Part shown: one piece after another, positions 56,045 to 60,541 of the stretch | Layout of the letters: every line of letters starts with the position of its first letter | Numbering within the stretch: position 1 is the first letter of the stretch | Origin: an uncultured Chlorobiales bacterium | GTDB taxonomy: Bacteria; Bacteroidota; Chlorobiia; Chlorobiales; Thermochlorobacteraceae | Reading direction: 5' to 3' | DNA: 60,541 nucleotides | Assembly (NCBI GenBank): GCA_938003965.1 | Contig: CALKXI010000053.1 | Location: 1-60,541 of the forward strand | Made by a program: the position numbers and the translations under genes | The notes under the pieces: model-generated | What the model was told of the DNA's origin: nothing | The model's input: only the letters and a program-made list of their open reading frames with translations | Database searches by the model: none

Positions 56045-56500
56045 ATGGGAAAAGCAGAACGTCAGTTAGCCATTAAGGAGATTATCACGACAAAAGAAAT
56101 TGCAAGTCAAGAAGAACTTGCCAAAGAACTTTTGCGCAAGGGCTTTGAGGTCAATCAAGCCACGCTTTCGCGCGACATGAAAGAACTCGGCATCGCCAAA
56201 GTGATTACCGCCGACGGCGTTTGGTATGAACTTCAAACCGACAACGAAGCGCAACGCTTGAAAATGCTTCTCTCTTACGAGATTGAGTCCATTCAATCGA
56301 ACGATTGCATGGTCATCATCAAAACGCTTCGTGGCAGAGCGTCAGGCGTTGCCGAAATTCTCGACCAACTCGCGCTACCCGACATTCTCGGCACGATTGC
56401 AGGCGACGATACGATTTTCATCGCGCCGACTTCTTCAAAGAAAATTCCGACCATTATCAAACGCATTAAAGAGGCGGTGCTTCAAACGGAGGAAAAGTGA
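56045..56500 (+). CDS. argR: arginine repressor
   Basis: Start set at ATG 56045 (151 aa). Winged-helix N-terminus (QEELAKELLRKGFEVNQATLSRDMKELG) and C-terminal GTIAGDDTIFI. The track start at 55961 adds a hydrophobic extension that is not ArgR-like. Confidence 0.85.
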   Translation: MGKAERQLAIKEIITTKEIASQEELAKELLRKGFEVNQATLSRDMKELGIAKVITADGVWYELQTDNEAQRLKMLLSYEIESIQSNDCMVIIKTLRGRASGVAEILDQLALPDILGTIAGDDTIFIAPTSSKKIPTIIKRIKEAVLQTEEK

Positions 56501-56631
56501 GTCAATATCGCGACCGAATTACGCTTAACCCGAATGTTGTGTGCAATGGTAAAAAGACACCAAAACAACAAGCAACCCAACAAAAAAGAGTAAATTTGAA
56601 CTTTATAAAATAACATTAGCAAGAAAATATA

Positions 56632-57146
56632 ATGATACTTTGGAATAACGACACTGAAATACAATTTTTTACAGAAGCATTAAAGAATTTTGCTTCGCCC
56701 GAACAATTATTTTACAATTTGCAGGGTGGATATTTTGCATATGTTCCAAAGGGTTCAGACGCTAAAGGGCAAACCTTACAAAGCAGAAATTCACTTATTG
56801 GACAGTTCACAGAAAAATGGTGTAAAACACTATTTTTGAGCCAATAGCGAAAGAATTAGGATTATATGCTGTAAATGGTGTTATTAGTTTCCAAATAATT
56901 TTAGATAAATATCAACTCTTTAACAATTGCAAAGAACTTGTGACCAATGATATGAATTACTTTTCTTCAATGATTTCCAAATTGAAACTTGGAGAAATTA
57001 TAAGAATTGCCAGACAAGAAACCACAGACATTGCAAAAGCAGAAAAATGTTTTAGACTTGTGGGCGTTTCCCTTTCGGGTCGGGCTATCCGTTACAAGTA
57101 CTCGCTTTTGACTTTTATCCCTAATACAGTAAAAAATGAAGCATAG
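56632..57146 (+). pseudogene. frameshifted ORF of unknown family (two fragments, 56632-56847 and 56826/56940-57146)
   Basis: Frame 1 stops at TAG 56845-56847. Frame 0 is open from 56826 to 57146. The frames meet at a T5 run (56833-56837); a T6 run would read ...FTEKWCKTLFFEPIAKELGLYAVNGV... as one ORF of about 170 aa. Confidence 0.5.
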
Positions 57147-57345
57147 TATGGAAAATAAGAATTTTGAAGTTAAAATCTACTATACAGGATTTTGCACTTA
57201 CATTATTGAAGCACAAGATGCTTCAGAAGCAATTTTAAAGGCAAGAAACCTTCCGGTTAATCATAATGAAATTTTATCCAATTTGGAAAATTGGGAAGAC
57301 GCAGACACAGCAGCAGAAATAAAAGATGAAGAAAGTAAAATCTAA
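57136..57345 (+). CDS. small acidic hypothetical protein
   Basis: 69 aa with an acidic tail (ENWEDADTAAEIKDEESKI). Overlaps the end of the broken ORF by 11 nt and the HNH gene start by 20 nt. No recognisable motif. Confidence 0.35.
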   Translation: MKHSMENKNFEVKIYYTGFCTYIIEAQDASEAILKARNLPVNHNEILSNLENWEDADTAAEIKDEESKI

Positions 57346-58165
57346 TTTGCCATTAAACTACATTACCATCAAAACTACCAAAAGCCGTATAGAAAAAGGC
57401 TTATTAGCAATTCCTGTTTCGTTAATTGATTTGTTTCCAAAAACAGGTAATAAAATCTTTTTAGTTAACCAAAATGGAGTAGTAGAAGAAAAATCATTTA
57501 CACCATATAAAAGCAGTAGTCGTGAATGTAGGATAGGCGGATTAAGTTCTTTTTACAAGAATTATCAAATTTCAGATAAAGAAGAATTAGTTATTCAAAT
57601 TATAGATGAAAACAAGTTTAAAATTATGCCAGAGAGAGTATTTAAGGAAAAAATTAAGAATGTTTTGTCTGAGTTTGAAAATTGCAAAGATGAAACTCAG
57701 GGAGAAAATATTTTATCTAAGATTACAGAAATTACAAATCTTTCCAAGATTGAAGTTTTAAAAAATGAATATGTAATGCTTTCAAAAACCAAAATGGAAC
57801 TTAGAAAGAAGATTGAAAAAAGTGCAACTTTAGTTAAAGAAACAGTTCCGTATTATATTCGTAGAATATTACTTGAACTATACAAAGGAAAATGTCAGCT
57901 TACAAATTTTACATTCCTTACGAAGAGTGGTAATCCTTATTTTGAGTTGCACCATATTGACCCAAACAAAGGCAATCACATAAAAAACTTACTTGTTGTT
58001 AGTCCGAATATACACGCTCAATTTACTCACGCAAATAAAGAAGAATTTTTTGACGAAGAAGGTTGGTTAAGAAAAGTTAAATTCAATCAAGACCAATATT
58101 TCGTCAATCAAATTATTGATAAACTACCAAAAGAGTTTGAAAAAGAAGTACATTATGAATTTTAG
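57326..58165 (+). CDS. HNH-motif nuclease with B3/EcoRII-N-like N-terminal domain (putative restriction endonuclease)
   Basis: 279 aa. C-terminal GKCQLTNFTF...PYFELHHIDPNKGNHIKNLLVVSPNIHAQFTH is an HNH beta-beta-alpha-metal pattern. The N-terminal ~95 aa (LAIPVSLIDLFPKTGNKIFLVNQNGVVEEKSFTPY...RIGGLSSFYKNYQISDKEELVI) follow the B3 pseudobarrel spacing. Lies immediately upstream of a DNA methyltransferase. Confidence 0.65.
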   Translation: MKKVKSNLPLNYITIKTTKSRIEKGLLAIPVSLIDLFPKTGNKIFLVNQNGVVEEKSFTPYKSSSRECRIGGLSSFYKNYQISDKEELVIQIIDENKFKIMPERVFKEKIKNVLSEFENCKDETQGENILSKITEITNLSKIEVLKNEYVMLSKTKMELRKKIEKSATLVKETVPYYIRRILLELYKGKCQLTNFTFLTKSGNPYFELHHIDPNKGNHIKNLLVVSPNIHAQFTHANKEEFFDEEGWLRKVKFNQDQYFVNQIIDKLPKEFEKEVHYEF

Positions 58166-58177
58166 ACATAAAAAGAG

Positions 58178-58903
58178 TTGCCTGACAACTCAGTTCATTT
58201 AATGATCACTTCACCGCCTTACAATGTTTCAAAAGAGTACGACGAAGATTTATCACTAAAAGAGTATTTACAACTTTTAGAAAATTCATTTAAAGAAACA
58301 TTTAGAGTTTTAGTAAATGGTGGTCGGGCTTGCATAAATGTAGCAAATCTTGGCAGGAAACCGTACATACCACTTTCAGACTATATTTCTAAAATGATGA
58401 TAGACATTGGCTTTAATATGCGTGGCGAAATCATTTGGAATAAGGCAGCAAGTGCAAGTCCTTCAACAGCTTGGGGTAGTTGGCAGAGTGCCGCTAATCC
58501 AATTTTAAGAGATATACACGAATATATTTTAGTTTTTTCAAAAGGTGATTACAAAAGAGAAAAAGGAAAAAAAGAAAATTCCATAACAAAAGAACAGTTT
58601 ATGGAGTGGACAAAATCTATATGGACAATGAACGCAGAAAGTGCAAAAAGAATTGGTCACCCTGCACCTTTTCCCGAAGAACTTCCTTTTAGACTCATTC
58701 AACTTTATTCGTTTAAAGGCGATATTATCCTTGACCCTTTTATGGGTAGTGGGACAACAGCAGTCGCTGCCATAAAATCAGAAAGAAAATTTGTGGGTTA
58801 CGACATTTCGCAAGAATATATTGACTTAGCAGAAAAAAGACTGAAACCATTTTTAGAACAGACAACTATAAAATTTGCGACTTTGGGTAATGATAAAGAA
58901 TAG
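58178..58903 (+). CDS. beta-class DNA methyltransferase, SPPY motif IV (N4-cytosine type likely)
   Basis: 241 aa. Motif IV TSPPY lies near the N-terminus and motif I DPFMGSGTT near the C-terminus (beta-class order), plus HPAPFPEELP. It begins at TTG only 10 codons before SPPY, so the N-terminus looks truncated or frameshifted. Confidence 0.8.
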   Translation: MPDNSVHLMITSPPYNVSKEYDEDLSLKEYLQLLENSFKETFRVLVNGGRACINVANLGRKPYIPLSDYISKMMIDIGFNMRGEIIWNKAASASPSTAWGSWQSAANPILRDIHEYILVFSKGDYKREKGKKENSITKEQFMEWTKSIWTMNAESAKRIGHPAPFPEELPFRLIQLYSFKGDIILDPFMGSGTTAVAAIKSERKFVGYDISQEYIDLAEKRLKPFLEQTTIKFATLGNDKE

Positions 58904-59001
58904 AACACTGCACACAACAGCAGCTTTGCATAATGGCGGGTTCAGTGCTTCGTATGACAGTTTTGTGGTTGGTTCAAGTACAGTGCTTCGTTTGAACTTT
59001 T

Positions 59002-59214
59002 GTGCTAAAAATCCGCCCCTACGCCAAGCCGCAAACCGTTATGAACGGCAAACCAACGATTCGCAATATGCGCTTCAGCGTTGCTGATGTTTTAGCATTA
59101 CTTGTCTCAGGAATGACCATTGATGAAATCCTTTCAGACTACCCTTACTTAGAGCGAGAAGATATCCTCGCCTGTTTGGAATACGCTTCGGCAGTTGCGA
59201 ACATCAATAATTGA
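59002..59214 (+). CDS. DUF433-family protein (antitoxin-like), orphan
   Basis: 70 aa from GTG 59002 (or 57 aa from ATG 59041). NGKPTIRNMRFSVADVLALLVSGMTIDEILSDYPYLEREDILACLEYA matches the DUF433 pattern (GKP.IrgTRi.V..il..l..G.s.eeIl..YP.Lt.edI.aal.YA). Confidence 0.65.
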   Translation: MLKIRPYAKPQTVMNGKPTIRNMRFSVADVLALLVSGMTIDEILSDYPYLEREDILACLEYASAVANINN

Positions 59215-59318
59215 CAAAAGTTGGCTTCTGATTCAACAAAAATTTCACGACGAGAAAGCCTCATTTATCGTTCTTGAACAATCTTCATTAACCGCGTTTT
59301 AACTTATCTCATCCTGCA

Positions 59319-60541
59319 ATGAAAGAAAAAATCGCCGTCGCTTATTCAGGCGGATTAGACACATCGGTCATCGCCAAGTGGCTTCAAGAAAAGTATAACG
59401 CCGAAGTCATTACGGTTTCGGCAAATCTCGGTCAGCAAAAAGAATTGGTTGGAATTGAAGAGAAAGCCTACAAGACGGGCGCGAAGAAAGCAATTGTTTT
59501 AGACCTACGCGAGACCTTCGCAACGGAATACATTTTTCCTGCCTTGAAAGCCGGCGCGCTTTACGAGCACACATATCCGATGGCAACCTCGCTCGGTCGT
59601 CCTTTAATTGCCAAAGCATTGGTTGATGTTGCCAAAGCCGAAGGATGCACGGCGGTTGCGCACGGTTGCACGGGCAAAGGCAACGACCAAGTTCGCTTCG
59701 AAGCCGCCATTGCCGCGCTTGCACCCGACCTCAAAGTGTATGCGCCGCTTCGTGAATGGGAATTCAAATCGCGCGAAGAAGAAATCGACTACTGCCAAAA
59801 GCACGGCATTCCTGTAAAGGCGACGAAAGAAAGTCCATACTCGATTGACGAAAACATGTGGGGCACCTCGATTGAATGTGGCATTCTCGAAAATCCGCGC
59901 ATTGCGCCGCCCGAAGATGCCTATCAACGCACCGTCTCGCCCGAACAAGCTCCAAACGAAAGTGCAACGGTTGAAATTGAGTTTCAGAAAGGCGTGCCGA
60001 TTTCGCTCGATGGTAAATCACTTCCGCCTGTTGAACTCATTATGAAACTCAACGAACTGGCAGGCGCGCACGGCATTGGACGATTGGATTTGATTGAAAA
60101 TCGATTGGTCGGCATTAAATCGCGCGAACTCTACGAAGCCCCTGCTGCAACCGTGCTCCACTTCGCACACCGCGAACTCGAGCGGCTCACGCTCGATAAA
60201 GACACGATGCACTACAAAGCCAAACTCGCTAACGATTACGCCGACCTCATTTACAACGGCTTATGGTTCTCTCCGCTTCGCTACGCGCTCAACGCCTTTG
60301 TGGAAGAAACACAGAAGGTTGTCAGTGGCGTTGTAACGCTCAAACTCTACAAGGGCAACATCTCGCTTCTTTCGCGCTGGTCGCCAAATTCGCTCTACGA
60401 CGAAAGCCTTGCCACCTACACCGAAGAAGACCAATTTGACCACAAAGCCAGCATTGGCTTCATCAAAATTTATAGCCTGCCACTGAAAACCTACTATCGC
60501 ATTAACGGCGCGCCGATTTCCGAGCAAGAAGCACTGGCGAA
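59319..60541 (+). CDS. argG: argininosuccinate synthase (3' end outside window)
   Basis: My own translation from ATG 59319 gives [22 protein letters not shown]...[15 protein letters not shown]...[14 protein letters not shown]. The frame is open to the window end, which is why it is missing from the ORF track. Confidence 0.9.

Follow-up and report, generated by a model that had tools for sequence, protein, structure and literature searches.

A predicted B3-HNH nuclease gene lodged in a restriction-modification operon of an uncultured Chlorobiales bacterium

The window analysed here is the whole 60,541-nucleotide stretch of contig CALKXI010000053.1 (assembly GCA_938003965.1, positions 1 to 60,541 of the forward strand), from an uncultured Chlorobiales bacterium of the Thermochlorobacteraceae, and its subject is a gene at 57326-58165 that joins a B3-type DNA-binding barrel to an HNH nuclease domain. 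An initial annotation, made from the letters of the sequence, had taken the product for a restriction enzyme paired with the adjacent methyltransferase; the fusion of a B3 pseudobarrel to an HNH domain was upheld, the pairing was not. The gene, which has the B3 fold and conserved catalytic residues, was found to belong to a small module that occupies one fixed junction in a two-gene operon, is present in some of these operons and absent from others, has a history discordant with that of its flanks, and stays under purifying selection independently of the methyltransferase. Throughout, A denotes the upstream 286-residue gene, B a small open reading frame of 65 residues, C the B3-HNH gene and M the methyltransferase gene; L-numbers are sampled loci, and an operon is termed invaded if it carries B-C and uninvaded if it consists of A-M without B-C.

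Gene C, its two domains and its family

The principal features, all on the plus strand of the window, are as follows.

57326..57631, plus strand: gene C residues 1-102, a B3-type DNA-binding pseudobarrel (AlphaFold2 model, Foldseek, and Pfam B3 matches in 46 of 60 homologues)
57632..57850, plus strand: gene C residues 103-175, a folded helical connector with a beta-hairpin (AlphaFold2 confidence mostly above 90)
57851..58165, plus strand: gene C residues 176-279 and the stop codon, an McrA-type beta-beta-alpha-Me HNH domain followed by a C-terminal beta-rich extension (McrA 6ghc, invariant columns)
57148..57345, plus strand: gene B, a 65-residue acidic ORFan, with a conserved location in about 28 of the 54 C loci
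57053..58171, plus strand: the inserted B-C module, 1119 bp, with no blastn homology to canonical operons between the flanking matches
58178..58903, plus strand: gene M, a beta-class N6_N4 DNA methyltransferase with an SPPY motif (Pfam PF01555, 1.1e-49)

The open reading frame of C, with an ATG start and 279 residues, agreed exactly with the protein quoted in the annotation. An AlphaFold2 model generated from an alignment of 60 homologues had a mean predicted local distance difference test (pLDDT) score of 94.5 and a predicted template modelling (pTM) score of 0.88, and comprised a beta-barrel (residues 1-102), three helices within residues 103-153 (103-118, 123-137 and 141-153), a hairpin whose strands span residues 162-171, a beta-beta-alpha unit (196-235) and a beta-rich tail (238-276). 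Comparison of this model with the PDB by Foldseek, a check proposed with the annotation, confirmed that the N-terminal half is predicted to be a seven-stranded open pseudobarrel of the B3 type: the best matches were the plant B3-DNA complexes TEM1 (7et6), NGA1 (5os9), FUS3 (6j9b) and VAL1 (6j9a), with E values from 1.7e-4 to 4e-4 and target-normalised template modelling (TM) scores of 0.58-0.66, the Foldseek probability was 1.00 for at least eight B3 structures, and the next matches were the B3-like N-domain of LlaJI.R1 (6c5d) and BfiI-C (3zi5, 2c1l). At the level of sequence the window protein appears as a remote member of the same family, the Pfam B3 model (PF02362) aligning with residues 14-100 at E 0.011 and 16.1 bits, below its cut-off of 30.1; scanned singly, 46 of 60 members of the C family matched that model at E <= 0.01 (best 2.3e-6). 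The landmarks LAIP, FP and ECRIGG..F, from which the domain had originally been recognised, proved to be invariant or almost so across the family, and a barrel of this fold would be expected to bind DNA in a sequence-specific manner.

The two domains had been described as separated by a Lys/Glu-rich linker of about 100 residues, the length of which was held to suggest cleavage away from the recognition site. A region joining the two domains is indeed present, but it amounts to about 70 residues and is confidently predicted as a folded helical connector; the argument for cutting at a distance consequently fails, because the modelled connector is a rigid helical unit and not a flexible tether.

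The HNH motif also withstood scrutiny. The HNH domain of McrA (6ghc) was the top PDB sequence match to C (E 1e-3) with the H-N-H positions in register, and residues H209, H210, N221, N228 and H230, which match the McrA motif, were invariant across the family; in the AlphaFold2 model the corresponding secondary structure consists of strands 196-198 and 207-210 and helix 227-235. Matches to curated hidden Markov models (HMMs) were concordant and all below threshold (Pfam HNH_2, 13.4 bits against 21; NCBIfam IscB, 1.2e-7 and 31 bits against 175), and weak matches to mREase_IV, the best PADLOC match, and to PHROG HNH families agreed with them. Since the N-domain dominated the search, whole-protein comparison of C with the PDB by Foldseek returned B3 matches only and no HNH, and a BFVD structure search returned nothing significant; the HNH assignment therefore rests on sequence and profile evidence. 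As originally remarked, the window motif (GKCQLT...VVSPNIH) keeps a single Cys, and because relatives of the same length and architecture at 29-40% identity keep all four in a CxxC...CxxC arrangement (GKCQLC...VVCxNCH), the single Cys reflects the loss of three of four ancestral zinc cysteines in the window clade.

The whole-protein C family comprised at least 466 clusters at 90% identity, nearly all of about 277 residues and annotated at most as 'HNH endonuclease'. A search of 1.84 billion proteins with the B3 domain of C alone retrieved 68 representatives: those of the longer matches that were aligned, nine in number (265-294 residues), all had the B3-HNH architecture, the remainder were mostly short fragments, and two long matches (P0308 and P0317) were without a defined matched stretch. 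To judge from these comparisons, the B3 subfamily of C is a closed one. Genomic copies of C were located in Bacteroidota, Ignavibacteriota, Chlorobiota, Spirochaetota, Cloacimonadota, Planctomycetota, Chloroflexota, Clostridia, Alphaproteobacteria and one Thermoplasmata archaeon. Two Methylomicrobium loci (L061 and L062) were rejected as C loci, the protein in question being an unrelated one of 1077 residues in which the region is present in degenerate form. The literature searched yielded no characterised B3-HNH enzyme, in keeping with the initial statement that this pairing was not recognisable among characterised enzymes.

The A-M operon and the inserted module

The conserved gene order around C homologues is A, a B of about 60 residues overlapping the start of C, C itself, and the N6_N4 methyltransferase gene M. 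The family of A is the larger of the two (2511 clusters, uniformly of 286 residues and 78-90% identical across phyla), and when A was looked up directly, an M of 295-313 residues was found to start 2 nt downstream with nothing between. A sample of 80 metagenomic A loci contained 71 canonical full-length A-M operons, four with B-C, one (L129) with another insert and four at a contig edge, so that A lies directly upstream (1-8 nt) of a full-length M, without B-C, in 71 of the 76 determinable loci.

Gene A had no match in Pfam, NCBIfam-type, PADLOC or PDB sequence searches, and UniRef names one member of its family 'Restriction endonuclease'. An AlphaFold2 model, based on a shallow alignment of 24 sequences that are 77-88% identical, was weak (pLDDT 61); its sole confident part carries, on consecutive strands, the invariant residues D97 and E118-x-K120, and its best fold matches by Foldseek, all weak, were NucC, EcoRI and SgrAI, with every PD-(D/E)XK match at E >0.03. 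We regard A as a probable PD-(D/E)XK restriction endonuclease and the partner of M, and on the strength of the canonical adjacency and of this PD-(D/E)XK-like core, A-M is an ordinary two-gene type II restriction-modification system. The closest solved relatives of M include the N4-cytosine methyltransferases 8s9n and 8s9m, and M probably methylates N4-cytosine.

The B-C module is an insertion at the A/M junction, always in the same place. In the window it replaces about 209 bp of the uninvaded operon L074, namely the last ~5 codons of A, the spacer and the first ~63 codons of M, and invaded operons are without M residues 1 to ~55-63, a conserved segment (GT.TSAFGT.GRINHDSSKFYNSKLY...). In every complete invaded operon the junction falls at A residue ~283 and M residue ~55-63. 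Alignments of the A and M proteins from invaded and uninvaded loci agree with the extent of the replacement; L013, L092, L141, L017 and L045 share the junction of the window, and yet the C proteins at this identical junction are merely 57-68% identical to window C. In the metagenome sample, 71 uninvaded operons stood against four invaded ones at a single fixed site.

A neighbour-joining tree of M residues 75-285 from 85 loci placed the invaded operons scattered among uninvaded ones, such that their backbones are polyphyletic. An example is the invaded operon L092, the M of which is 98.6% identical to the nearest uninvaded as against 93.8% to the nearest invaded operon, with equivalent values of 97.4% and 89.3% for A. 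At synonymous sites its A differs by 3% from that of uninvaded L087 and its M by 19-34% from its closest uninvaded relatives, whereas its C differs by at least 62% from every other sampled C. This disparity among A, M and C indicates that invaded and uninvaded operons have recombined recently, with a breakpoint at the junction. At L032 (5000-5310) a complete B-C has a C fragment (residues ~8-30) joined to it in frame on the upstream side, which looks as if one module had recombined into another. A comparison of synonymous divergence between C and M in invaded pairs, which leaves out the rows with the window, L028 and L030 (the window M being computed separately), was saturated for nearly all pairs (proportion of synonymous differences, pS, 0.5-0.8). 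Raw DNA identity between module and flanks was discarded as evidence, given that drift in dead flanks is neutral whereas C is subject to selection.

Within the module, gene B begins 1 nt past the stop of the A remnant, has an alternative ATG at 57136 and overlaps C by 20 nt; it had only 19 database homologues, all unnamed, and no Pfam, PADLOC or PHROG match. In four loci its place directly upstream of C is taken by B', an unrelated open reading frame of 76-78 residues that starts M.GYYISSKQVRELGLL... and had no family match, and an RNA-like element lies in the left leader of the module, in the interval that separates A from B.

L016:2132-2365: B' in the position of B
L019:4759-4989: B' in the position of B
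L020:3590-3820: B' in the position of B
L023:2898-3134: B' in the position of B
57074..57129 of the window, minus strand: Flavo-1 RNA-like element in the module left leader (Rfam RF01705, 28.6 bits, E 0.0028)

The window copy of the Flavo-1 element is below threshold, its terminal stem being deleted; a homologous copy at L017:4731-4809 scored 52.2 bits, above the gathering threshold, and the element is conserved in L007, L015, L017 and L092. Exactly at the right junction of the module, at 58175-58191 within the ELPDNS codons of M, is an inverted repeat, GAGTTG-CCTGA-CAACTC, which uninvaded operons also contain and of which several invaded ones have an imperfect form; it may be no more than a consequence of the coding sequence. 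Promoter and terminator scans gave counts within shuffle expectation.

At L129 (4363-5420) an A-M operon that is canonical in other respects has, at the same junction, another insert of 1.1 kb, consisting of a Cys-rich open reading frame of 130 residues and a ThaI-family restriction endonuclease gene (PF15514, E 7e-91), and flanked by a duplicated M 5' end. Nuclease genes may land at this junction recurrently.

Loss of the operon around gene C

A profile-based census took in 54 loci in which C is complete or almost so. Gene C was intact in 49 of them, a share inflated by the collection of the loci through conserved HNH peptide patterns, and A in five, with M running from the junction in all five; three more loci with intact A were found later. 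Over the whole census, M ran from the junction in about 12 loci, was a stub in about 22 and was undetectable in about 19 (the last two together ~41). The ratio of non-synonymous to synonymous substitution rates (dN/dS) of C, a value unaffected by the manner of collection, was 0.07-0.33, pairs sharing a dead M included. The initial proposal that C is a restriction enzyme working with the adjacent M is contradicted by these data, M being paired with A in 71 of 76 loci and C being intact where M is dead in some 40; because C stays intact, and is subject to purifying selection, even in loci with a mere stub of M or none at all, it is very probably independent of M and not its restriction partner. 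A restriction enzyme dependent on M could not outlive it in this way, since restriction-modification pairs normally decay in the reverse order.

The manner of this erosion was also consistent from locus to locus. In 21 of 23 stub loci, M-homologous DNA begins no more than 35 nt past the C stop codon, and the point within M at which the stubs start varies widely (residues 82-270), with starts at 144-150 reached independently in five C clades (L010, L015, L018, L034 and L049). Remnants of A likewise adjoin B, so that on both sides erosion halts a few nucleotides at most from the module (loci L007-L057); even the apparent C-only loci L016, L019, L020 and L024 have the last ~20-30 codons of M directly after C, and the most divergent C (L055, 39% identity) still adjoins an M stub. 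Candidate explanations for deletions that halt at the module edges are cleavage by C of its own borders, microhomology between the AT-rich 3' end of C and sites inside M, and selection that keeps the operon promoter and removes translated fragments of dead genes.

In the window, A is a pseudogene of which two segments are recognisable.

56543..56881, plus strand: upstream region and codons 1 to ~83 of pseudogene A (blastn to uninvaded L074 and L064, 82-87%)
56883..57052, plus strand: codons ~225-281 of pseudogene A (blastn to L074 2575-2745, 91%; HMM match to A 226-284)

A tblastn search with intact A matched residues 1-68 at 56632-56835 and residues 66-84 at 56829-56885 in another frame, and the status of A as a pseudogene follows from a deletion of 423 bp (codons ~84-224) and a frameshift near 56830 within the remnant (56632-57146), which lies outside the coordinates of the initial annotation. 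The closest relatives of window C (81% and 74% identical) are located in complete A-B-C-M operons with A intact, and the decay of A is therefore recent in the window lineage.

The window M starts, as had been noted, after a gap of 12 nt, with the C stop at 58165 and a TTG at 58178. About 65 N-terminal residues of the canonical enzyme are missing, homology to L074 beginning at 58172, which corresponds to M codon 64. Over residues 75-285 the protein is 97.6% identical to uninvaded L074 M and 95.3% to the nearest invaded one, and the values against L074 (pS 0.31; proportion of non-synonymous differences, pN, 0.019) denote a coding sequence with a history of strong purifying selection. The internal start Met of other invaded operons (AATATGAAAGAG) reads ACATAAAAAGAG in the window (58166-58180), an ATG to ATA change that leaves the TTG at 58178, in a poor ribosome-binding context, as the sole remaining start; with A dead, decay of the window M may have begun.

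The A remnant, B, C, M and a DUF433 gene together form an island (56500-59320) with a G+C content of 35-41% as against ~48% in its flanks. It splits an arginine cluster, with argC-argJ-(acetyltransferase)-argB-argF-argR on one side and argG on the other. The DUF433 gene (59002-59214; PF04255, E 1e-21) is located just downstream of M, before argG, and belongs to a family that we take to be often antitoxin-like.

Readings of the function of C

The reading that we tentatively favour, at somewhat less than an even chance for the full homing mechanism, is that C is a homing-like, selfish, site-specific nuclease that colonises the A-M operon. The B3 barrel would dock on a specific DNA sequence and the rigid connector would position the HNH domain to nick or cut nearby, with H210 acting as general base and the metal bound by N221 and H230, by analogy with the aligned residues of McrA. 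The preferred target would be the intact A/M junction of module-free operons, at a site within the ~209 bp that are deleted from invaded operons, which would thereby be immune. Repair of the break from an invaded copy would then paste B-C into a new operon in homing-like fashion, a step of which the observed part is the exchange between invaded and uninvaded operons at the fixed site. Nested in a tightly coupled A-B-C-M array, the module would ride on the horizontal spread of the operon; thereafter it persists while A and M erode, as is evident from the census. The target of C must be a rare or foreign one, given that C is tolerated in the absence of methylation. We consider it unlikely, if worth stating, that a homing module on this junction would further amount to one selfish element inside another, one that exploits the addictiveness as well as the mobility of the operon, that may promote operon erosion by cutting at the edges and of which solitary C copies may shield the host by cutting incoming uninvaded operons, a form of 'anti-restriction-modification' immunity.

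Free-standing HNH homing genes of the mob, I-HmuI and ShiLan types provide the closest behavioural parallel, being likewise small HNH genes at one fixed site that are present or absent among near-identical alleles and have a history partly independent of the host genes; the ShiLan HNH homing element, which resides inside a phage methylase gene, is a precedent (PMC11855218). By comparison with such genes, C differs in being chromosomal, with none found in phages or plasmids, in having a B3 domain instead of NUMOD or helix-turn-helix modules, in replacing ~209 bp with no clean insertion, and in remaining under selection after decay of the target locus; cleavage of the empty site is for C hypothetical.

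A number of points weigh against the homing reading. Searches of IMG/VR viral contigs, 50,697 phage genomes and 72,556 plasmids yielded no C, whereas most free-standing HNH homing genes reside in phages; gene A likewise had no match in viral, annotated phage and plasmid collections. A single B3 domain usually reads 5-6 bp, which is short for a harmless rare cutter unless oligomerisation or some added specificity intervenes. Classic homing genes decay after fixation, and C has been kept under purifying selection in the Cloacimonadota (L016, L019 and L020), apparently by vertical descent with the operon long dead, a retention indicative of host benefit or of addiction; the share of intact C genes is, moreover, inflated by the way in which loci were collected. 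No mismatch gradient of the kind left by co-conversion was seen beside the junction, on either side of which the A and M flanks of L092 have different nearest relatives. The polyphyly of invaded operons could be explained by ordinary homologous recombination between co-resident operons without cleavage. Finally, all four genes are intact together in operons of several clades (L013, L017, L045, L092, L141, L151 and L153), so that the module can coexist with a functional operon, to which it might contribute.

The main rival, which is doubtful on the whole and yet substantial, is that C acts on its own in defence, as a nuclease of the McrA or Type IV kind that needs no methyltransferase and is directed at modified or otherwise marked foreign DNA, and which was captured once into A-M as the second prong of a cassette, spread with that cassette and by recombination, and was kept after the restriction-modification system decayed. 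Such an origin would account better than homing for the long-term selection on solitary C, given that chromosomal C is under purifying selection without M, and with or without B, in more than 12 phyla. It also fits the close resemblance in size and layout between C and E. coli McrA, the HNH of which was the best PDB match as mREase_IV was the best in PADLOC: McrA, TagI, ScoA3IV and the VcaM4I/TspA15I group are proteins of ~280 residues with an N-terminal reader, a helical connector and an McrA-type HNH that can occur as solitary genes, solitary intact copies of C exist with the same N-terminal reader and C-terminal HNH, and this is the standard layout of characterised modification-dependent enzymes, from which C differs in reader fold (PMC6765204). 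Type IV HNH enzymes are, moreover, known to interact with resident methyltransferases (PMC8989522). The reader itself is less well explained by a defence function. Unlike the McrA group, C has a seven-stranded B3 pseudobarrel and not NEco, SRA, EVE or PUA, and no Pfam match to SRA, EVE, PUA, NEco, SBD or DUF3427 was obtained at E <= 1; the B3-like domains of EcoRII-N, BfiI-C and NgoAVII read short unmodified sequences, and no B3 domain that reads a modified base was found in the literature searched. C further departs from that group in the loss of three of four zinc Cys and in its ancestral position within a restriction-modification operon beside an active methyltransferase, which modification-dependent HNH enzymes rarely adjoin (PMC6765204); its modification dependence is hypothetical. 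The single fixed junction would be left unexplained, and many contexts would be expected of a general defence gene, yet even the C of L055 adjoins a stub of the same M.

That C should be a type II restriction endonuclease whose sites are protected by M, in this case a substitute for A, or an addition to it, served by the same M, is very unlikely, even though C is tightly coupled to M in one operon with the 12-nt gap, the shortened M appears functional in that every intact-A locus has M intact from the junction, and the window retains an intact C and M beside a dead A. The ThaI-family gene of L129 shows that restriction genes do insert at this junction, and the known B3-like domains of restriction enzymes read short unmodified sites: the pseudobarrel of C is that which EcoRII-N, BfiI-C, the NgoAVII/CglI R-proteins, LlaJI.R1-N and UbaLAI deploy as a nuclease recognition module. 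Those enzymes nevertheless belong to methyltransferase-dependent systems, and their partners are of the PD-(D/E)XK, phospholipase D-like (PLD) or AAA+/McrC type and never HNH in the literature searched (PMC3973309, PMC4267654, PMC5766183). KpnI, Hpy99I and PacI do combine a beta-beta-alpha-Me core with a neighbouring methyltransferase gene, but no sequence or fold match to them was returned and C, unlike them, does not co-vary with the methyltransferase. A frequent cutter under purifying selection in ~40 loci that it has outlived M in should be lethal, the orphan methyltransferases left by normal decay are the reverse of the pattern seen, and the canonical operon, already having nuclease A, has no need of C. 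About as improbable is a toxin-antitoxin-like or nuclease-immunity relation between B and C, as a pair the loss of which kills the cell; this would explain deletions that halt at the module edges. B is small, acidic and translationally coupled to C by its overlap with the C start, its replacement by B' in four loci recalls the swapping of antitoxins, and the module is kept while its neighbours erode; intact C was found, however, without B, B' or any other small upstream open reading frame in many loci (L041, L035-L040), with only ~80 nt between C and the upstream gene in L041, and B has no similarity to known antitoxin or immunity families. Each of these last two readings is thus contradicted by a tested feature, and the probability left over falls to something else.

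Were the pairing to be confirmed biochemically, HNH would join the nucleases that use a B3 barrel for recognition, and C would constitute a compact (277 residues), apparently zinc-independent modular nuclease that could serve enzyme engineering, with a specificity domain of a type well understood from plant and EcoRII/BfiI structures. Its genomic behaviour matters more: a nuclease gene inside a restriction-modification operon has an evolutionary fate of its own, which is a caution against the annotation rule that a nuclease beside a methyltransferase is a restriction enzyme. If C is a B3-based Type IV enzyme, it would be, to our knowledge, the first B3 domain that reads modified DNA. If it is instead a homing element on restriction-modification operons, it would add a new layer of mobile-element conflict and a possible route to operon inactivation.

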